Below, piece by piece: positions 11,868 to 51,348 of a stretch of DNA of 64,000 nucleotides. The DNA comes from Candidatus Poribacteria bacterium. GTDB lineage: Bacteria > Poribacteria > WGA-4E > WGA-3G. The position numbers and the translations under genes were made by a program. Below the pieces are notes generated by a model. It saw only the letters and a program-made list of their open reading frames with translations, made no database searches and had not been told where the DNA came from. The stretch lies in the NCBI GenBank assembly GCA_965242965.1, contig OZ251518.1, positions 2,720,001-2,784,000 of the forward strand. Direction: 5' to 3'. Position 1 is the stretch's first letter, and each line of letters opens with the position of its first letter.

Positions 11868-13352
11868 ATGGAAAAACGAACAAAAATCATTCTCATCGCC
11901 GTTATCTGCATCGCGCTACTTCTCGTCGCGTTCTTTCTCTTTGTGCCAAGGGATTCGGAACGGACTGTGGCGGCCCCTGCACCGCCGCGGGAAGTGACAC
12001 CGATTCCATTACCGCCGCCGAGCCCTTCAACCATCGCAGTGAAGGCGGAATTGCCCATCGCCGAAGTCAGACAGAAAGCCGCATCAGCCCTCAGCGACTA
12101 TCTCCGCAAACCCATCCAGCGGGAAGACATTGTCAAGGGCATCACTATTGAATCTTTCGTCAACCTCATGCCGGGCACGATGACGATGACGAGCGCCCCA
12201 GACAGCACCATCTCGGTGCAAATGCCGTTTCAGTTTAAGGGCTGGGCACGTGCATCTAAAAAAGTGCTCGGGCAAGTGATTCGGCAGCGCGAGGATTTCA
12301 CAGGCAAGGCAACAGCGACGCTAACTCTGACATTAAGACTTGATTCAGATTGGAGCATCCGGCCGGAAAGTGAACTTGAGATTGTGATTCAGGAGGCGAC
12401 ACTCCGCTTCTGGGGTATCCCTATCTCCATTCGGAGCATCTTTACGCGATTGGTGGAAGATGTCGTTGCCCCGAAATTAGAGGAACTGATTGTGAAACAT
12501 ATCGCCCGCGTTGATGTGAAGACGCGCGTCGCGAGCGTATGGGAACGCCTCCAAGAACCGACAAAAGTCCGAGAAGAACCGCCTATCGTCCTTGTCATGG
12601 AACCGTTAGAAATCGCCTCGCAACATCTGTCCGGTAACGAGGAAACCCTCTTTATCAGCCTTGGGATAAGAACCTATATTCAGGTGCTCATCGGGGATAT
12701 CGCCGCGTCGCGACTTGAAGACGCGCCACTGGCACTGAAACCGCTGCCAGACTTACAATTTGTGGACGCGCTTGAATCAGGTTACCACATTCTCGCGCCT
12801 ATTGAAGTCGCTTACACTGCCATTGAAAGATTGGCGGAGCCGCATGTGGAGAAGGCGCATGACTTGAGAGGTATTGAAACACACGTCGAAACCTTGTCCC
12901 TTTACGGAAGCGGAAATCAACTCGTCGCTGGTGTCGCCTTTAACATGCCCGCGTTTGACGCGCGTGGACAACTCTACCTCCTCGGAACGCCGGTATACGA
13001 TGCAACGACGATGTCCATCGCTGTCACCGAATTCAATTATGCGCTGACAACGCAAAGCCTGTTGCTGGAATTCGCAGAGGATATCGGCGAAGGCATCTTT
13101 CCAAACCTACGGACAACAGTTGAGGAAAAACTGGTTTTCTCACTCGAAGAACGGTTGACAGATTTGCGAGATATGTTAGTGCGTGTCATCGAAAACCGCC
13201 AGATTGGTTCCTATGTCACCTTGCGCGGGACAGTCGATTCGGTTACCCCGGAGGCACTCTATTTGACGCAAACCGGCTTACGCGTGCCTTTCCGTTTGCA
13301 GGGTAGTCTCTCTTGCGAAGTGCACTTGGGCGAAACCGGACCAACCGAGTAG
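11868..13352 (+). CDS. DUF4403-like membrane-anchored protein
   Basis: N-terminal TM helix, Pro-rich linker, 'PSTIAV..ELPI' and 'GQLYLLGTPVYD' segments that resemble DUF4403. Confidence 0.6.
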   Translation: MEKRTKIILIAVICIALLLVAFFLFVPRDSERTVAAPAPPREVTPIPLPPPSPSTIAVKAELPIAEVRQKAASALSDYLRKPIQREDIVKGITIESFVNLMPGTMTMTSAPDSTISVQMPFQFKGWARASKKVLGQVIRQREDFTGKATATLTLTLRLDSDWSIRPESELEIVIQEATLRFWGIPISIRSIFTRLVEDVVAPKLEELIVKHIARVDVKTRVASVWERLQEPTKVREEPPIVLVMEPLEIASQHLSGNEETLFISLGIRTYIQVLIGDIAASRLEDAPLALKPLPDLQFVDALESGYHILAPIEVAYTAIERLAEPHVEKAHDLRGIETHVETLSLYGSGNQLVAGVAFNMPAFDARGQLYLLGTPVYDATTMSIAVTEFNYALTTQSLLLEFAEDIGEGIFPNLRTTVEEKLVFSLEERLTDLRDMLVRVIENRQIGSYVTLRGTVDSVTPEALYLTQTGLRVPFRLQGSLSCEVHLGETGPTE

Positions 13353-13379: not shown

Positions 13380-14320
13380 GAGGGTGTTTCATATCTTGAA
13401 GTCTTCCCAGTAGGAGAGACCTCGGGGCTCGATTTCCTGTAGGAGAGACCTCCCGGTCTCGATGTTCCCGCAGCGCGGGGGACAGGCCCCGCGAGCGTTG
13501 ATTTGCTGTCATAGTCTGGGGATCTACGGTAACGGGACGATTTCTTCACGTTCGCGGGGGACAGGCCCCGCGCTACGGGAACGGGACGGTTTCTTGGCAG
13601 CAGAACGGCCCCCTTTCACCGTAGGGCGAGGGCCTGTCCCTCTCCATGCTGCGGTTCATCAAACCGCTCTTTTAGGTCCGTAGGACCTTAATGTCTATAG
13701 CTCCTCGCGCAGCGAAACCTCTTAAGGTCTGTAGGACCTTAATGTGCGCCGCACCACGTGACTTGCATGCTATTAAGGTCCTAACGGACCTTGAAAACGG
13801 GCCGACACGTGTGGCTATAGACATGCAGGACCTAAAGGACCTGAAGAGACGTTTTTTTCAAAAGAGATTTCGCCGCTGCAAGGGAGAGCATCTTGTGAAT
13901 CCTGAGTCAGACAACTAACGGAGATCGAGAGATCGCGAGGGACAGGCCCTCGCGCTACGGTAATCGGGGCATGGTTTGCTGCACGCGAGGGACAGGCCCT
14001 CGCGCTCCCCCTCTGTAGTTTGCGATCGCCTGATCGCGATCAGGTCAAGAGCAGGCGCTCTTGACCTACAGACAGCGATGCTCAATTACCGTAGGGCGGG
14101 GGCCTGTCCCCCGCCGTGCCCGGGATGCGATGAAAGTTCGCGAGGGACAGGCCCTCGCGCTACGGGAATCGGGACGTGGTTTGCTGCACGCGCGGGACAG
14201 GCCCCCGCGCGCTCCCTCTGTAGTTTGCGATCGCCTGATCGCAATCGGGTCAAGAGCAGGCTCTTGACCTACAAACTACGGTAATCGAGCGATCGCGAGG
14301 GACAGGCCCTCGCGCTACGG
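13380..14320. repeat. REP cluster starting with a lone TIR; includes the four-box module at 13674-13843
   Basis: GAGGGTGTTTCATA at 13380, many GTAG palindromes, and an internal ~200-bp duplication (13930-14320). Confidence 0.9.
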
Positions 14321-14351: not shown

Positions 14352-14420
14352 TTGACAAAAACGTTAAAAAACATTAAAATCACATTTTAATTTGACAAAC
14401 GCGCGAAAATGTGGTATAAT
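14352..14420 (+). promoter_or_regulatory. Two tandem sigma70 promoters
   Basis: TTGACA(14352)-17-TAAAAT(14375) and TTGACA(14392)-17-TATAAT(14415). Confidence 0.8.
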
Positions 14421-14426
14421 ATATTC

Positions 14427-14989
14427 ATTACACAAATTTGGTGCGATAGTAACCCTCATCAACGAAAAAGGAGCGCGAAACATGACATCTCAAATCGCTT
14501 GCATTTCCGCGGATATGCCGAAGTGTCTGCATCCGACGTGCCAGCCGCATCGGCTGCGCGCCGTGTCTCCATTTGCGCGTCCAGTTGATGACACCGCACT
14601 AAACATAAGTTCGATTTACCCCCCCCGTCCTATATGTCCGTTAACCCGTGACGTTATCGGCGGGAAGGCGATTCGGGGGAATATCTCATCTGAATCCCAA
14701 CCCAAAACCCGCGTGCTTTGCACGCGCATATCTTCTTTTGCCTCGTGGCACGCGCTCGCCTTCGCGAGCTCGCTCTTGCCACGGGGATTTTTGCGTTGCA
14801 TCGTCCGATGCAACGGTTACCAGCGTTGTTCCGGGGAAACTTCACTCCCCACTAGGGGTATTAAGGGGCAGGATAACCGTGGGCACCCGCCCACGGTTAT
14901 CTTGTTTTCTCCGAAACACGCGCGCCTTTCGCCTACCGAGGCGGGAGTCCCCTATTCATTTGATTTTCATAACTCTTGGAGGAATTTGA
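14427..14989 (+). promoter_or_regulatory. Long leader with uORF (ATG 14482), C8 tract and hairpins
   Basis: RBS AAGGAG. C8 at 14619-14626. Hairpins at 14794-14815 and 14872-14901. Similar to the leader at 49453-50080. Confidence 0.55.
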
Positions 14990-17900
14990 ATGAAAAGCAA
15001 ATCGCTTTTTTCCTTAAGTTTACTACTGCTGTTTGCCGGGATAGTTGCCATGATGGGAACACCGACAGACGTGCAAGCACAACTCTTGATTGATAGCATC
15101 AGGATTTACGTGAATCCTGACATGGTTGCGCCCGAGAACGACAACACGCCAAATAATTTTGCTGAGGGGTGGGTACCGTCAAATAATTTTGATGGCCAAA
15201 TCGCGGCCATTGATAATTTTGAGGAGGGAACGCTTCAAGGGGGCATCTTAATCGATGAATCAAACGCGCACTCGGCGGGAGCAGATGCTTTCACCGCGAA
15301 CGCGGGCGATATCATCGCCATCGCATTTAGGCTGCAAGAGGCTGGAACGAGCACCAGGATGGTATCGCATATAAATCTAGCCTTCGATACGTTAGGGCGA
15401 CCACATTCTCCACACATGTTTAATGGAGAGTCCTATCGGAACACTCGAGGCCCTAGCCGTTTCCTACAAACTTCAGGTGGAGCCAAGGTGAATGTAACTC
15501 CAAACACCTATTTTACCGCGGTCTACCTCTACCAAGTGAGGTCAGGAGACAGCGATGTGAACGGTGATTGGATTAGTCGTCGTCCAGGGACCAGCGGTAG
15601 GACCAATGACGGGCCCTTCATCAGATATGATGGGCCTCCGCTCGTTGAAATTCCCGCCAGTGCCACTGTCCACTATCCCAGGATAGATGGTAGCGTTTCG
15701 ACGATTCCTCAGGTGACGCGCCTGACGATAAACAGTCCGCCCGCCGGGCAGTCAGGACGCTCCCGCTATTACAAAGTCCGCCAAGAGTGTTTGGATCATC
15801 AACGAAAATACGGGGATGTCTACACGACTGCTTGTGAGTTAGTGCAGGACCACGGCTGGGCTCTTCCCAACGATCCGACTCATCCGGTGACGCTAGCCAA
15901 TAGCCTGCCGACTGCCTTTTTCAAAGCCGGCGACACGATAGAATTTCAGTTGCATTTTAGCGAAGAGGTGATTGTGACAGGGGCTCCAATCCTAGAGCTC
16001 ATGCTTGATGGGGGGACCGGACGGATGCACTACGTATCCGGGAGTGGGGCAACGACACTTACCTTCCGATACACAGTGCAACAAGGCGATACGGCTTTCG
16101 GTGGCATCGCGGCTTGGAATGCTTGGGGTAACATCAGGGATGGCAATAGCATCGAAGATATGTCAGGGCATAAAGTGAATAGCGTTACCCGGGACGTTGA
16201 ATCGGCGATTCGGGCATTTTTTGCCGGTCAAGAGGGCATCAGGGCGGAGGAGGCTCATCCCTGGTTAGACCCGCCAGGTGCCCACTGGAAAAAGTATGCC
16301 ACCGGTATCGCTGAATACCTTGTGGATACTGTTCCCCCGACGGTGTGGATTCCCGGCTTGATAAAGAATGGGGAGACACACACCGACGATAGACGGAATA
16401 CGTTTGTGAGTGTGGAACCGACTTATCTTGCTGTCCCCACATTTACGGAGGCAGATCTCCGAGCGTCTATTACGGAAAGTGAATCACAGACAGATGCCTT
16501 TGATGTGGAATTCCGCTTTTTCAATTGGGACGGCGGGGCATTAGCCGACGAAGTGGGGATAAGTTTTACCGGCGATGATGTGGAGATCACGGGGGCGAAT
16601 GTGGAGCGAGCCGATTGGGCGGTTGAAACTACCTATATCGGGTTAGACCATCGTGCTACCAATCAGTGGCCGCCTACCGACAGATCGGGGCAGCTAGCGG
16701 GTTCAGCCCATAAGCCAGGGCATGCAAAAAACTCCGCGTCGTTCCTCGTCTACAAGGCGACAATTCGTCCGGCCCTGGGTTTTCAGGGCAACGTGTCCAT
16801 CAGTTTGCCGGCGGGTGCTACCCAAGATATCGCCGGCAACGACAGTTATGCCTCAAATACGTTGACAGTGCCCGTGAGCAATCCATTGCGCGTGGTGGAA
16901 ACGCCGGAGATTGTCGTGCCTCCCGCCGGTGTCCATACCGCCGGGGATAAGATTGAAGTGGAAGTGACGTATGACAAGGATAATCTCCGCTATGAAGGCG
17001 ACAACCCGCCGTATCTCACGCTGTATCTCGGCGAAGAAGTGCCGGCAAATGCTCGGCATGCTGTCTGGAGTGCCTCAGAAGACACGAATTCGACGAAAGT
17101 AACGTTCGCGTATACGGTGGCAGCAACGGACACGGTGGCAGAGGCAGTGCGTGTCCCTTCCGTCAAGATAATGGTTCCTGAAGAGACGAGTTTGCTTTCT
17201 GGTTCCCTCGGTGCGTCGGCTGAGCGGCAGTCTGGGACAGAGGAGCCTGCGGCGGCATCTGGCACTGCGCCAAAAACGGTGCCGGTGATAGAGCCGTCGC
17301 CGTTGACAGATACGTCTGGCAGTGAAGTTGCACCGGTAGTTTCGGAGACACCGGTGGTGCCGTATACGCTGATTCCTGAGGAGACAGCACCGAAGGCGGC
17401 CGCCACAGATGTCCCAGAGGATCCGATTGTCTTCAACGAACTCGGCAATGGCAGCGGCGATGCTGATGACTGGCTGGAACTCCGCAATGTGACAGGATCT
17501 GCCGTGTCCTTAAAAGACTGGGAGCTCAGCATCGTGCAGGATGGCAAGAAGGAAGATACCTCCCTGATTGCTTTTGTAGAAGATGTGAGTGTGCCGGCGA
17601 ACGGGTTGTTGCTGATTACCAACAGCGATCCGACGGCGAAAGGCAATGCGCTTGCAGGTGGGGATGATGTAGAGACTGCCGAGGTCGAAACAAAAGGTTC
17701 TTCGCACCTGTATCTTGTCAAATCGGAGTTGTCCCTACCTGACGATGGAAAATTCCTGTTGATTCTCCGGAATGCGCAGAAGAAACTCGGTTTAAACGAG
17801 GCGTTCGTGGATGTCGCCGGTGGCGGCGGCAGTGATACCGATGCATTCGTCCGCGAGCAGACAGGCGACTATGATACGCATGTCTGGCCCTTGCAAGTGC

Positions 17901-19105
17901 TGCAGGCACCCGGTGGTGACACTGAAGATGCCCTCGGTTCAGGCAAAGTCTGGCAGCGCGCCAAGGCGGATATCGTCGGGTATCATCGAGATGCCTGGGC
18001 AGAATCGGCATTCACGGGCATCGGTTATGACAGGAAGGTGACAGAGTCCGCTGCCACTTCCGGCACACCGGGCTATCCGAATGGTGCAGTGAAACCAGGG
18101 TCTGCCACGCCGAAAGGCAGTATCACCTTCAGCGAAATCATGGTGGATTCCGGCGGGCGCACACTGCCGCAGTGGATCGAACTCTACAACAATTCCAAAA
18201 CGGATGCTATCAATCTCAACCGTTGGGAGTTGGAGATTCAGAATGTCGATTCCGAGGATTTAGTCGGCCGCCCGATTGTCACGTTGACACTCGGTGAAAA
18301 AGTGATTCAACCGAATCAAACGTTGCTCATCGTGGCGGGACCGGCGCGTGCATCGTCGGATTCGTATCTGCCGGCGGACAGGGTTTATGATCTGTTGGCA
18401 CTGCATGATAAGAATCTGCGCATCAAAAGCGCGCGCGATACCTTCTTAAGTACCGAAGGGTTCTACCTGCAACTCTCCGATAGGAACGGGAATCTCGTCG
18501 ACGAAGTCGGTAACAGGGACAGCGATCGGCGTTCGGACGATGCACCGGCCTGGGCATTACCGCTGAGTTTTGAGGAAGGTTCTCGGAGTTCCATCATTCG
18601 GCGTTATGACAAGAGTGTTGCGCTGCCGGGACGAAAGCGTGCGAGTTGGGTTTTAGCATCGCGCATCAAGCCATTTGATGAGTCTCTCCATTACGGCCAT
18701 GCTGATGACATCGGCACGCCGGGGCATCGCGAAGGTGGTGCATTACCGGTAGAGTTATCAAGTTTCTCGATGACGCGCACCGAGGCAGGTGCTGTCGTCT
18801 TGACATGGACAACCGAGTCGGAGGTAGACAACGCGGGCTTCAACCTGCGTCGCAGCGAGAAACGCGCGAGTGGTTTCACGCTCTTGAATCCTGCGCTCAT
18901 CGCCGGTGCCGGCACGACAGGTGAACGTCAAACCTACACGTTTACCGATACGTCTGCGAAGCCGGGTGTTGAGTATTACTATCAGATTGAGGAAGTGGCG
19001 TTTGATGGGAAACGGGAAACGTTAGTGACGCGGTTGTTGCCGGGTCCTGTTTCTGCGGCAAATCGGATGCTGACGACGTTTGGCGAGGTGAAGAAAACGA
19101 AGTAA
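14990..19105 (+). CDS. Large secreted adhesin-like protein: Ig-like repeats, two lamin-tail-like domains, C-terminal LPVELSSF domain
   Basis: Signal peptide. 'AGDTIEF...YVSGSG.TTLTFRYTV' type repeats. 'IVFNEL...DWLELRN' and 'ITFSEIM...QWIELYN' domains. Ends 'LTTFGEVKK'. Confidence 0.8.
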   Translation: MKSKSLFSLSLLLLFAGIVAMMGTPTDVQAQLLIDSIRIYVNPDMVAPENDNTPNNFAEGWVPSNNFDGQIAAIDNFEEGTLQGGILIDESNAHSAGADAFTANAGDIIAIAFRLQEAGTSTRMVSHINLAFDTLGRPHSPHMFNGESYRNTRGPSRFLQTSGGAKVNVTPNTYFTAVYLYQVRSGDSDVNGDWISRRPGTSGRTNDGPFIRYDGPPLVEIPASATVHYPRIDGSVSTIPQVTRLTINSPPAGQSGRSRYYKVRQECLDHQRKYGDVYTTACELVQDHGWALPNDPTHPVTLANSLPTAFFKAGDTIEFQLHFSEEVIVTGAPILELMLDGGTGRMHYVSGSGATTLTFRYTVQQGDTAFGGIAAWNAWGNIRDGNSIEDMSGHKVNSVTRDVESAIRAFFAGQEGIRAEEAHPWLDPPGAHWKKYATGIAEYLVDTVPPTVWIPGLIKNGETHTDDRRNTFVSVEPTYLAVPTFTEADLRASITESESQTDAFDVEFRFFNWDGGALADEVGISFTGDDVEITGANVERADWAVETTYIGLDHRATNQWPPTDRSGQLAGSAHKPGHAKNSASFLVYKATIRPALGFQGNVSISLPAGATQDIAGNDSYASNTLTVPVSNPLRVVETPEIVVPPAGVHTAGDKIEVEVTYDKDNLRYEGDNPPYLTLYLGEEVPANARHAVWSASEDTNSTKVTFAYTVAATDTVAEAVRVPSVKIMVPEETSLLSGSLGASAERQSGTEEPAAASGTAPKTVPVIEPSPLTDTSGSEVAPVVSETPVVPYTLIPEETAPKAAATDVPEDPIVFNELGNGSGDADDWLELRNVTGSAVSLKDWELSIVQDGKKEDTSLIAFVEDVSVPANGLLLITNSDPTAKGNALAGGDDVETAEVETKGSSHLYLVKSELSLPDDGKFLLILRNAQKKLGLNEAFVDVAGGGGSDTDAFVREQTGDYDTHVWPLQVLQAPGGDTEDALGSGKVWQRAKADIVGYHRDAWAESAFTGIGYDRKVTESAATSGTPGYPNGAVKPGSATPKGSITFSEIMVDSGGRTLPQWIELYNNSKTDAINLNRWELEIQNVDSEDLVGRPIVTLTLGEKVIQPNQTLLIVAGPARASSDSYLPADRVYDLLALHDKNLRIKSARDTFLSTEGFYLQLSDRNGNLVDEVGNRDSDRRSDDAPAWALPLSFEEGSRSSIIRRYDKSVALPGRKRASWVLASRIKPFDESLHYGHADDIGTPGHREGGALPVELSSFSMTRTEAGAVVLTWTTESEVDNAGFNLRRSEKRASGFTLLNPALIAGAGTTGERQTYTFTDTSAKPGVEYYYQIEEVAFDGKRETLVTRLLPGPVSAANRMLTTFGEVKKTK

Positions 19106-50087: not shown

Positions 50088-50292
50088 ATGATAAACGAAC
50101 ATGCAATAAATGTCAAACATTTTTTTGCGAAAAATCGTGGAAATGTTCACAATTAACCATATTCTACATGAATTTCGGTTTTTTGTCAACGTTTTTCTGC
50201 GAAAAATCGTGAAAACAGTTAAATTCACGCGAAAAATCGTGAAAAATGTTTAAAACTGAGTTTATTTTAGCAAATGTCGCATTTTTTGTCAA
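50088..50292 (-). promoter_or_regulatory. Three tandem sigma70 promoters
   Basis: TTGACA-17-TAAAAT (50292-50264), TTGACA-17-TAGAAT (50189-50161) and TTGACA-17-TATCAT (50116-50088). Confidence 0.8.
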
Positions 50293-50321
50293 GGGTATTT
50301 CGCGAAAAAAACGCTGCTGCT

Positions 50322-51348
50322 ACCGTAGCGCGGGGGCCTGTCCCCCGCGAACGTTCGATCCAAACGAAAAACGTCGCTTGGAACGTAGCGCGGGGGCCTG
50401 TCCCCCGCGATCTACCGACCTAAACGAAAACCGTCCGCAGCCCAAGGGCCCCGGACGGTTTCTGTTAAGACCGAGGCACGGCGAGGGACAGGCCCTCGCC
50501 CTACGATTCGGGGGGACGGTTCGGACAACTAGGAAAGAAAAAGCATATTAAGGTCCTACAGACCTTAGCGTGCCGTGCGTTGCAGCTGCTATAGACATTA
50601 AGGTCTTACAGACCTAAAGAGACTTTCGGCGCAATAAAAACCCCTAATCTTGAAAATCTTGGAAATCTTGGAAATCCTGCTCCAGACCGAGGCATGGCGA
50701 GGGACAGGCCCTCGCCCTACGGTGATAGGGGCAATCAAGCATGGCGAGGGACAGGCCCTCGCCCTACGGTTCAGCGGCGTGGTTCGGATAGCCACGAGAT
50801 AAAACGCACATTAAGGTCCTACAGACCTTAGCGTGCCGTGCGTTGCAGGATGCTATAGACATTAAGGTCTTACAGACCTAAAGAGACGTTTTATCGCGAT
50901 AAAACCCCCGAATCTTGCAAATCCGGAGCAGGATTCTCACGGTCACACCTGTCAAGACAATCAGGTTTTCCTGATTGTCCCTCTTCAGGTTTCCCTGATC
51001 GTCCCTCTTCAGGTTTCCCTGATCGTCCCTCTTATCACGATTCTCACGATTATAGGTTCTGATGCACCAACACCCCGTGGCCTGCCACAACCGCGCCGGC
51101 GTACCAGATCCCTAATCCTGTGAAATCCTGTGAAATCTTGGAAATCTTGCAAATCCTGCTCAATCTTGCTCATCTTGAAAATCTTGGAAAATCAGAGCAG
51201 GATTATCACGGTCACGCCTGTCAAGACGATCAGGTTTTCCTGATTGTCCCTCTTGACAAGATTTCCAAGATGAAGACGCTAATCCTGCTAATCTTGAAAA
51301 TCTTGTAAATCCTGCTCATCTCTTGAAAATCTTGTAAATCCTGCTCAT
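50322..51348. repeat. REP cluster, two-box modules, 24-bp tandem x3 and AATC(C/T)TGnn 9-mer arrays
   Basis: CAGGTTT(T/C)CCTGAT(T/C)GTCCCTCTT three times (~50962-51033). 9-mer arrays at ~50647-50680 and 51114-51348. Confidence 0.85.

Follow-up and report, generated by a model that had tools for sequence, protein, structure and literature searches.

The window analysed here, a 64-kb stretch of DNA from Candidatus Poribacteria, contains two unrelated genes that are each preceded by a long leader of the same layout (leader A on the forward strand and leader B on the reverse strand). This raises the question of what such a leader does and why different genes carry it. Leaders A and B belong to a single type of regulatory cassette, which is common in this lineage and probably switches surface-protein genes on or off. 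As its mode of action we favor, with a probability of about 0.55, a slippage-prone frame switch that may be coupled to attenuation, by analogy with the pil1 locus of S. gallolyticus. New here are the family structure, the three-frame design, the presence of B copies before unrelated genes, the distribution over the phylum and the published precedent. The architecture, frames, hairpins and distribution described below were computed.

According to the original prediction, both leaders share one layout of tandem promoters, an RBS with a start codon, an 8-C tract, a GTTAA shortly after it and a hairpin. This layout was confirmed: the promoters are of the sigma-70 type, GTTAA follows the C8 tract after 13 nt, and the hairpins have U tails. 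The positions of the features are given in Table 1. For the main promoter of leader A, the −35 hexamer is invariant in all 19 aligned family-A copies, as are four of the six −10 positions and the 3′ half of the spacer, which includes the TG extension. The leader B promoters at 50189 and 50116 are each preceded by a repeated motif (about 17 nt), and a third copy of this motif is located upstream of the 50189 promoter. The 1371-aa protein behind leader A has a signal-peptide-like N-terminus and a lamin-tail domain, and belongs to a group of about 27 paralogues that follow A- and C-type cassettes. For the FRG protein behind leader B, there was no close orthologue (best match, 46%). A scan of the 64-kb window for tRNA and tmRNA genes found none.

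Table 1. Positions of the features of leaders A and B and their genes in the window
Feature	Position	Strand	Remark
Leader A upstream tandem promoter, TTGACA-17-TAAAAT	14352-14380	+	11/12 consensus positions
Leader A main promoter, TTGACA-17-TATAAT with TG extension	14392-14420	+	12/12 consensus positions
Leader A RBS AAGGAG	14468-14473	+	
Leader A leader-ORF ATG	14482-14484	+	
Leader A leader ORF as found here	14482-15093	+	203 codons, long (−1) frame
Leader A C8 tract within leader ORF (Pro codons)	14619-14626	+	137 nt past ATG
Leader A GTTAAC	14640-14645	+	13 nt past C8 tract; TAA unused in window copy
Leader A hairpin Ta and T-rich tail	14710-14739	+	terminator-like, −11.2 kcal/mol, z −3.3
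Leader A hairpin T1, then U run	14741-14797	+	−32.3 kcal/mol
Leader A GGGGA-TTTTT-GCGTTGCATCG..CGATGCAAC feature	14783-14814	+	
Leader A hairpin T2 and UUGUUUUCU	14865-14912	+	−32.8 kcal/mol, z −6.5
Main ORF behind leader A, own RBS GGAGG	14978-19105	+	1371 aa
Leader B three tandem promoters	50292-50088	-	−35 hexamers at 50292, 50189, 50116
Leader B RBS GAGGAA	50026-50021	-	
Leader B leader-ORF GTG	50013	-	
Leader B leader ORF as found here	50013-49882	-	43 codons, stop TAA 49884-49882
Leader B C8 tract	49861-49854	-	152 nt past GTG
Leader B GTTAA	49840-49836	-	13 nt past tract; TAA is the usual leader-ORF stop of the family
Leader B hairpin 1, tail CAUUUUG	49812-49797	-	−8.3 kcal/mol
Leader B hairpin 2, tail UUAUUUUCGUU	49785-49755	-	−18.2 kcal/mol
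Leader B GGG-TTATTTT-CGTTGCATCG..CGATGCA feature	49758-49724	-	
Leader B hairpin 3	49746-49724	-	−16.0 kcal/mol
Leader B long (−1) frame	49881-49468	-	137 open codons, early TAA to TAG 49470-49468
Main ORF behind leader B	49452-47932	-	506 aa, FRG domain and TPR repeats

The two leaders had also been proposed to be homologous. When leader A was compared with leader B by blastn, the best match had an E value of 0.004 over 31 nt of promoter, and the TTTT-GCGTTGCATCG block gave 0.087. Because nhmmer matches were dominated by REP-like palindromes when 100 nt of upstream flank was included, trimmed models were used instead. The flank-trimmed A and B HMMs gave no cross-matches at E below 1e-5. Homology of the two leaders cannot be demonstrated by pairwise alignment; their kinship rests on their shared architecture. 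The peptide motifs that were said to be shared are present in the frames of the named start codons, but the frame of leader B is broken by its TAA after 43 codons, and the motif RAVTP of leader B is the product of a frameshifted reading particular to the window copy. These shared motifs reflect features of the nucleotide sequence, namely the C tract, the arms of the terminators and the U runs, and no conserved peptide. The values of pN/pS were 0.75-0.83 in the leader frames versus 0.85-1.12 in shifted frames. For the leader-ORF frame (0.75-0.76), this selection test suggests weak purifying selection, but no clear peptide constraint.

The typical leader ORF is about 55 codons long; the tract is located about 45 codons in, and the stop is the TAA of GTTAA, five codons past the tract. 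The original prediction offered a leader peptide as one alternative, and the A copies fit it: an RBS, a start codon and a frame open to the tract were found in 22 of 22. An RBS and a start codon were present in 16 of 19 B copies, and an RBS-like sequence, a start codon and a frame open to the tract in 44 of the 50 cassettes. From these sequences, the leader ORF looks translated. The stop codon of the leader ORF is precisely the GTTAA TAA in 36 of the 50 cassettes found in this genome. The same holds for 13 of the 16 B copies that could be analysed and for 32 of 44 distinct loci of other genera, where a free frame would be expected to end there in 1/3 of cases. The large indels between TAA-state copies (9, 12, 6 and 9 nt) are upstream of the tract and preserve the frame.

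The three frames behind the tract differ. In most copies, a stop is reached in the +1 frame within about 35 nt. By contrast, the −1 frame is open for 250-540 nt over the U-tailed hairpins to the main gene, or is itself the main gene. We counted stops in the frames 0, +1 and −1 over 240 nt past the GTTAA TAA. The counts were 20, 30 and 0 for the A copies of this genome (−1 frame stop-free in 11 of 11), 56, 44 and 5 for the C copies (14 of 16), 22, 24 and 5 for the A copies of relatives (8 of 11), and 5, 29 and 9 for the B copies (11 of 16). Owing to small indels, different copies use different frames as the long frame, which still stays open. The long-frame peptide is not conserved (pN/pS 0.83 versus 0.93 and 0.92). 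Thus, because the long frame stays open across copies that use different frames and its peptide is unconserved, openness is kept, not a protein. In subfamily C, the −1 frame is the gene of 1400-1500 aa itself, and the tract is in the 5′ coding region of that gene. One subfamily-C copy, which carries C8, forms an in-frame fusion of 1562 codons, whereas the seven C7 copies of its paralogue group stop at GTTAA.

The C8 tract of leader A fixes the reading frame. As found here, the leader A ORF crosses all three hairpins and overlaps the main ORF by 104 nt from its ATG; compared with sister copies in the TAA state, it has an additional G at 14609. In leader B, the run 49919-49917 is longer by one T than in the sister copies closest to it, which shifts the frame. 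The TAG of its long frame overlies the RBS of the main gene, 15 nt ahead of the main ATG. None of the 16 B copies of this genome is in the long frame. The frame state of both window copies is set outside the tract, by the G and the T mentioned above, and these single-base changes could be ordinary mutations or assembly errors.

The idea of a dispersed regulatory cassette is supported by about 50 copies in this genome and by its presence in relatives. Family A has 11 copies in the genome, ahead of paralogous giant lamin-tail proteins; family B has 19, ahead of unrelated genes (at least 13 unrelated proteins); and 17 partial "C" copies were matched by the A model. The layout is highly non-random: a run of six or more Cs followed by GTTAA at 8-16 nt occurs at 56 sites genome-wide (about 4.7 expected), with a promoter 152-282 nt upstream at 50 of them. 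Within the phylum, the composite layout pattern was found in 47 of 176 genomes, versus one match overall for the reversed control pattern. The layout is maintained over seven genera despite sequence turnover. The genes behind the cassettes encode surface, repeat-domain or FRG proteins, among them "eukaryote-like" proteins, namely giant lamin-tail, fibronectin/cadherin, leucine-rich-repeat and TPR proteins.

Hairpins start about 65 nt (A) or 24 nt (B) past the leader stop, which is at +15 from the tract, and each is followed by a U-rich tail. Their stabilities are −11 to −33 kcal/mol (z −2.7 to −6.5). In the alignments, 97.9% of cells were paired versus 38-50% with the partners slid. Seven pairs were changed on both sides, versus 0-2 with the partners slid, and these compensatory changes stem mainly from two or three sequences. 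The T1 stem is preserved in relatives via compensatory changes; T2 is near-invariant within family A and has 3 pairs with both sides changed. It should be mentioned that a simple terminator scan detected Ta and the first B hairpin but missed T1 and T2, which were obtained from folding and pair counts.

The tract ranged from C6 to C10 in the 50 cassettes linked to a promoter and reached C12 in further cassettes, and other genera had C7-C21. Tracts of C10, C16 and C15 are found at three loci whose flanks are near-identical. Variation between species and between paralogues is clear, and among relatives the length of the tract is unstable although the flanking sequence is retained. Runs of at least 8 G or C are over-represented in this genome: there are 118, and 37 of them are within cassettes. 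We also inspected contigs from four public runs, which are pieces of about 80-150 nt from many paralogues. An extra C at 14618 was seen in 2 contigs of one run and 1 of another, where it is indistinguishable from paralogues, and a missing base at 14609 was also seen. Because the pieces are short and come from many paralogues, these differences are not assignable to the window locus. Among the public runs listed as containing the locus, there was no RNA run. When metagenome contigs were scanned with the B-type tract pattern, there were 0 matches. A 20-mer of hairpin T2 was found in 6 metagenome contigs; none of them fits either family model, and therefore these are chance matches.

The frame switch that we favor would work as follows. 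A strong sigma-70 promoter would produce a transcript with a small translated leader ORF in its 5′ part, and the run of 6-12 Cs would choose the frame in which ribosomes leave this ORF. Ribosomes in the commonest frame would halt five codons on, at the GTTAA stop, and those in the −1 frame would cross the hairpins to the main start or, in one subfamily, enter the main gene directly. Slipped-strand mispairing that adds or removes one C would toggle the locus between two states, "short peptide" and "long peptide". In the former state, the hairpins would form, or Rho would load on the naked C-rich RNA, and transcription would mostly end before the gene. With the long peptide, translating ribosomes would block termination and bring ribosomes to the main start. 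About 50 genes, mostly for surface and eukaryote-like proteins, would thereby be switched independently and heritably. Three elements of this model are inferred, namely that tracts slip within populations, that transcription terminates at the hairpins and in which direction the effect goes.

The precedent is pil1 of S. gallolyticus, for which a phase-variable leader peptide acting with a premature terminator was shown experimentally (Danne et al. 2014, PMC3894217). There, the peptide of the commonest frame ends ahead of a stem-loop terminator and expression is low; the longer peptide of a shifted frame ends in or past the terminator, and translation prevents its formation (PMC3894217). Like the cassettes, pil1 has a promoter, an RBS and a short leader ORF with a slippage-prone repeat, and it controls a surface adhesin (PMC3894217). 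There is also a likeness in the reading frames: at the sequence level, the short peptide of the cassettes stops before the hairpins and the −1 frame runs past them. The pil1 repeat consists of 22 GCAGA units (PMC3894217), whereas the cassettes carry a homopolymeric C tract. Moreover, pil1 has one hairpin, in contrast to two or three in the cassettes. Of the two shifted frames of the cassettes, a single one is long; it extends in many cases as far as the main start and, in one subfamily, is continuous with the gene. Furthermore, as judged from sequence, the cassettes amount to about 50 loci per genome, and their layout is conserved over several genera, with a conserved GTTAA stop five codons past the tract.

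Two other known systems are comparable. Homopolymeric-tract contingency loci are found in the 5′ coding region of genes for surface proteins or restriction-modification systems in Neisseria, Campylobacter, Bordetella and Helicobacter. In these loci, the length of a G or C run fixes the frame and families of surface proteins switch independently, as would also be the case for the cassettes; subfamily C is exactly of this type. However, the tract of families A and B belongs to a leader ORF of its own, several hundred bases ahead of a gene that has its own RBS, and the host of the cassettes is not a pathogen but an uncultured sponge symbiont. In the tna operon (TnaC) and in amino-acid attenuators, leader peptides control Rho-dependent or intrinsic termination. 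There too, the position of a ribosome on a short leader ORF determines whether transcription continues. In those systems the supply of a metabolite or charged tRNA places the ribosome, whereas in the cassettes the reading frame appears to do so. The cassettes contain proline codons, but none of the genes behind them is for proline synthesis, and an amino-acid biosynthesis attenuator of the trp, his or leu type was therefore rejected.

On/off switching of surface genes by slippage counts as a hallmark of pathogens adapted to a host, and a role in host interaction is ascribed to "eukaryote-like" proteins. In this uncultured sponge symbiont, about 50 genes appear to be under slippage control through one compact cassette. 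If this is confirmed, symbiont populations in one sponge would be mosaics of surface types, and annotation would have to change, since genes now taken to be "frameshifted" or to have long leaders would in many cases be switchable. What has so far been shown for one streptococcal pilus operon would become a genome-wide, modular and transferable device. The conserved stop context also provides a concrete handle for finding further translational control.

Several features exceed the needs of a simple on/off mutational switch, namely the strong bias for the TAA frame, the fixed five-codon spacing, the conserved GTTAA and, in other genera, a C-terminal pattern of two or three prolines, a few residues and an I-R end. 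We considered whether the cassette is a regulated, non-mutational leader-peptide device with the short ORF to GTTAA as its normal state. Proline codons or a conserved C-terminal context would stall ribosomes according to the supply of EF-P or proline-tRNA, or C CCC CCC would cause a frameshift; the stalled or shifted ribosome would govern Rho loading or terminator formation, and the tract would be kept for its coding, not for its mutability. The TAA frame holds in this genome and elsewhere even with 14, 15, 16 or 21 Cs, and the spacing and GTTAA are fixed over families that otherwise share little. In other genera, the prolines are repeatedly followed by a few residues with I-R or T-C at the end, directly ahead of the stop, as an arrest peptide (SecM, TnaC or ApdA) might have, but pN/pS in families A and B (0.75-0.76) is without clear peptide constraint, and the residues after the prolines vary by family (V, S, L, D). 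With respect to programmed −1 frameshifting, C CCC CCC is in register in the TAA-state copies, where the tract reads ACC CCC CCC, a formal fit to the slippery heptamer X XXY YYZ. However, CCC-type sites are poor −1 slippery sequences, and no conserved stimulatory structure was found at the required distance, 5-9 nt past the tract. The RNA after the stop is C-rich and G-poor at many loci, and poly(C) is a classic activator of Rho. Against such a device, the tract is far more variable in length than a fixed stalling motif requires, and subfamily C acts as a plain in-frame/out-of-frame fusion. We regard this explanation as tentative and rather unlikely.

A bolder proposal combines the two mechanisms: the cassette would be a translational sensor of a new class, beyond a mutational on/off switch, and DNA slippage would be a second, slower layer of control. 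The polyproline run, five-codon spacer and stop context would stall ribosomes or make them slip by −1, and the sensor would tune Rho-dependent or intrinsic termination for about 50 host-interaction genes. The GTTAA-stop frame is found in about 72% of loci across genera, tracts of 14-21 Cs included. We consider such a sensor unlikely.

The leaders might instead have no regulatory function and be decayed 5′ ends that were duplicated together with surface genes, and the frame differences would then be errors of the assembly, in homopolymers or elsewhere. In favor of this, the A and C leaders travel with one paralogous gene family, subfamily C has its tract inside the gene, the assembly is of metagenome type (2 contigs, 94.66% complete), and both window copies are shifted by single-base differences. 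Arguments against it are the B-type leaders ahead of at least 13 unrelated proteins, a layout held over seven genera, a long frame that is open though its peptide is unconserved, and near-consensus promoters, of which the main A promoter is almost constant among copies. This explanation is very unlikely.

The long leaders with several stable hairpins, some covariation and conserved short motifs (for example, GTTAA and a downstream CGGCAG block) would also be compatible with a structured cis-regulatory RNA, riboswitch-like or protein-binding, in which the open frames are incidental. The original prediction had not recognized a known ncRNA, and this was upheld: a credible match to Rfam (release 15) was absent even at E up to 10, with 0 gathering-score matches in the 64-kb window and only chance-level scores (E 0.07-10) for the leaders. 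Furthermore, the RBS and start codon are conserved, indels ahead of the tract preserve the frame, one specific frame is depleted of stops in four separate copy groups, and the stop position is conserved. A structured RNA with incidental frames is thus highly improbable. Least probable of all is a mobile non-autonomous (MITE-like) element with an outward-facing promoter: the B copies are 80-92% identical ahead of unrelated genes and have a sharp 5′ boundary adjoining REP-like palindromes, but terminal inverted repeats are absent around the B cassette, the cassettes always point to the downstream gene, and their 3′ end differs with that gene.

Two minor observations concern individual loci. The DUF4403 neighbor has an 89% orthologue in genome G002, and the A copies of G002 lie away from that orthologue. 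A cassette copy at position 2222329 of contig C1 is among the tract-plus-GTTAA sites of the genome studied here.

The leader of the lamin-tail gene (leader A, 14352-14989, plus strand) and that of the FRG gene (leader B, 50292-49453, minus strand) had been predicted to share one layout. All features predicted for the two leaders are present, with coordinates as predicted. They are collected below, together with the hairpins that lie in the long-frame path.

Features of the two window leaders
Feature	Leader	Position	Strand	Property
Tandem sigma-70 promoters	A		+	two, near-consensus
Tandem sigma-70 promoters	B		-	three, near-consensus
Leader ORF start with RBS	A	14482	+	ATG
Leader ORF start with RBS	B	50013	-	GTG
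C8 tract	A	137 nt past ATG	+	
C8 tract	B	152 nt past GTG	-	
GTTAA	A and B	exactly 13 nt 3' of tract		
Hairpin GCGTTGCATCG..CGATGCA	A and B			preceded by G-rich arm, then U run
Hairpin Ta	A	14710-14726	+	-11.2 kcal/mol, U-rich tail
Hairpin T1	A	14741-14786	+	-32.3 kcal/mol, U-rich tail
Hairpin T2	A	14865-14908	+	-32.8 kcal/mol, U-rich tail
First B hairpin	B	49812-49797	-	-8.3 kcal/mol, U-rich tail
Second B hairpin	B	49785-49755	-	-18.2 kcal/mol, U-rich tail
Third B hairpin	B	49746-49724	-	-16.0 kcal/mol, no tail noted

The best blastn match between the two leaders (E = 0.004) spans 31 nt of promoter, and their global alignment is unconvincing. In the whole genome (5.70 Mb, two contigs), 56 sites have at least six Cs in a row with a GTTAA 8-16 nt further on, as compared with about 4.7 predicted from how dense the two motifs are. 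In 50 of these 56 sites, TTGAC[AT]-N16-18-TAnnnT is found 152-282 nt upstream. The case for regarding leaders A and B as related lies in their common architecture rather than in pairwise alignment, and the observation of two related leader cassettes is real. The further copies expected of a dispersed cassette were also found: blastn detected 11 leader-A-like loci (family A) and 19 leader-B-like loci (family B). A trimmed family-A profile matched 17 shorter relatives (group C). No known riboswitch or ncRNA had been recognized in the original prediction, and Rfam likewise gave no match to leader A or leader B.

Each family-A locus precedes an ORF of more than 1100 codons, and the ORFs behind family-B loci have 100-720 codons. 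The genes behind the A and C cassettes are paralogues of one giant lamin-tail-domain protein family (59-88% identical). In contrast, those behind B cassettes are for the most part mutually unrelated: the ones listed encode FRG plus TPR (window copy), TPR, tyrosinase, trypsin-like peptidase, dockerin, cohesin with a secretion tail, Big_5 and a coiled-coil protein, and several have no Pfam match. Other cassettes precede fibronectin/cadherin giants, LRR-LTD-fn3 proteins, a laminin-G lectin, a TonB-dependent receptor and an ABC-2 permease; an Eco57I-like methylase gene has the tract and GTTAA upstream without a promoter match. The DUF4403 gene adjoining leader A (11868-13352) has an 89% orthologue in a genome of the same genus (G002, contig C1, 463731-465200), near which no family-A copy was found. 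Thus, the position of the lamin-tail gene and its cassette is not conserved.

The family-A copies examined number 22: 11 of this genome, 10 of G002 and one of another genome, G001. Each has an RBS resembling AAGGAG, a start codon (ATG or GTG) and a frame open to the tract. The large indels in the leader ORF between copies of two species that stop at GTTAA are 9, 12, 6 and 9 nt long. For family A, pN/pS is 0.76 in the leader frame, as against 1.02 and 1.12 when the frame is shifted; the corresponding values for family B are 0.75, as against 0.98 and 0.85. The leader ORF thus looks translated, and the RBS, start codon, open frame and indel lengths bear out the leader-peptide alternative of the original prediction. 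The peptide itself is under hardly any constraint. Because of this, the peptide motifs noticed in both leaders, which are indeed present, are regarded as nucleotide features (tract, terminator arms and U runs) and not as a conserved protein. The RAVTP motif read in leader B is confined to the window copy. This copy carries an extra T at 49919-49917 relative to its nearest sister copies, so that its leader ORF ends at the TAA at 49884-49882, 5' of the tract.

Past the tract, each of the three frames behaves differently, and all families show the same pattern. Frame 0 stops at the TAA of GTTAA, five codons past the tract, and most copies have a frame +1 stop 4-34 nt past it. Frame -1 is long. 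It extends for 250-540 nt in A and B, and for the majority of C copies it is identical with the main ORF of 1400-1500 aa.

Stop codons within 240 nt after the TAA, by frame
Group	Frame 0	Frame +1	Frame -1	Stop-free copies in frame -1
A, this genome	20	30	0	11/11
C	56	44	5	14/16
A, relatives	22	24	5	8/11
B	5	29	9	11/16

The long frame stays open despite small indels that put different copies into different frames further on, although its peptide is not conserved (pN/pS 0.83 versus 0.93 and 0.92). What selection seems to maintain is openness, in other words translation as such. For window copy B, the long frame ends at a TAG (49470-49468) on the RBS, 15 nt 5' of the FRG start codon. Several other copies also have the end of this frame close to the main start, at a distance of up to about 35 nt.

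All six hairpins are more stable than shuffled sequence (z -2.7 to -6.5). In a 19-sequence alignment of family A, 97.9% of cells are paired versus 38-50% with slid partners, and both-sided changes occur at 7 pairs versus 0-2. Since two or three sequences account for most double changes, the covariation evidence is genuine but thin.

For the pil1 pilus operon of Streptococcus gallolyticus (PMC3894217), a mechanism has been shown by genetics. Its leader peptide gene carries a repeat prone to slippage. Translation in the common frame finishes the peptide 39 bp 5' of a premature terminator, and expression is then low. Shifted frames give a longer peptide with its end inside or beyond the terminator, and the ribosome blocks terminator formation. 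Because the cassette matches this anatomy point for point, we consider that it is most likely a homopolymer version of the pil1-type switch. Gain of one C would put a locus that stops at GTTAA into the long-frame state. The cassette would then represent a known type of switch in a new variant, one that is very large and widely conserved. Among the papers listed by full-text literature searches, none links Poribacteria with phase variation, apart from an incidental hit, or, judged by title or abstract, with homopolymer switches.

Among the 50 promoter-linked cassettes of this genome, the leader ORF is in the GTTAA-stop frame in 36, the +1 frame in eight and the long frame in five, and one is otherwise placed. 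Window copy A is one of the five: its ORF (14482-15093, plus strand) runs across the three hairpins and overlaps the main gene by 104 nt, owing to an extra G at 14609 and not to tract length. One C-type copy with a C8 tract is fused in frame with its gene (1562 codons), and in the seven C7 copies of the same paralogue group GTTAA ends the leader ORF. The long-frame state is absent from the 16 analysable B copies of this genome.

The main rival to a purely pil1-like reading is a second layer of control, in which ribosomes would stall on the proline run or slip on C CCC CCC, or the loading of Rho onto C-rich RNA would be controlled. Room for it is left by the GTTAA at a fixed five-codon distance in families with little else in common, and by the 72% of loci in the GTTAA-stop frame even where tracts of related loci differ by non-multiples of three. 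A bare mutational switch, for which any early stop would suffice, makes this fixed GTTAA superfluous and does not predict the 72% preference.

Within the pil1-type reading, type C would be the classical in-gene form of the switch, and types A and B the leader-peptide form. Together, types C and A suggest that evolution led from the in-gene form to the leader-peptide form. In group C (for example, contig C1 of this genome at 3921212, 4262531, 4428806 and 1117342), the tract lies inside the 5' coding region of 1400-1500 aa giants, which have no RBS of their own 3' of the tract; the protein is obtainable only fused to the N-terminus of the leader ORF, which is signal-peptide-like.

Among 40 relatives searched by blastn, family A is confined to two other genomes of the same genus, both of which also have family B; one additional relative gave a weak 26-nt match to family A. 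The composite pattern (TTGACA, 212-242 nt, C7, 9-15 nt, GTTAA) matches 47 of 176 genomes of the phylum. With the window's own genome excluded, these fall into its family (42/111), a second family (4/29) and elsewhere (0/35); the reversed pattern, used as a control, gave one match in total. In 32 of 44 distinct loci (47 in all) read from other genera, the leader ORF ends at the TAA of GTTAA. Their tracts have 7-21 Cs, and a small hairpin with a T run is common 3' of the stop. Three loci with near-identical flanks have C10, C16 and C15; thus, tract length drifts while the surroundings hold. A few matches starting TTGACATACCAATT (G001, G002 and a further genome, G009; for example, G002 C1 1866076-1866333) were excluded from the 47 loci. 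These lack a -10 hexamer and resemble a conserved coding gene in which C7 and GTTAA occur by chance.

Many of the other-genera loci L084-L118 have one TTCACA block just 5' of the GTTAA stop and a second about 20 nt 3' of it. In the same region (20-70 nt past the stop), these blocks are followed by a hairpin with a stem of about 7-8 bp and a T run, and by a conserved GCCCGCACG block. At the matching place, this genome has a CTCGGCAGG block. REP-like palindromes with a GGGACAGGCCC core and a T run at the end are clustered immediately 5' of both window cassettes (14100-14320 and 50320-50500), and may insulate the cassette promoters against upstream transcription; an nhmmer profile retaining 100 nt of this flank gave matches throughout the genome. 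The promoter region of leader B (50116-50245, minus strand) contains three copies of a motif of about 17 nt (TTTCACGATTTTTCGC-like), two of them a few bases 5' of -35 hexamers. This motif is also kept in the other B copies, and could be an operator or UP-like element. G/C runs in this genome number 588 of length 6, 106 of 7, 78 of 8 and 29 of 9, a fall-off that is not geometric. Runs of at least 8 are over-represented (118 in total, 37 inside cassettes), and the 81 outside cassettes may mark further switchable genes.
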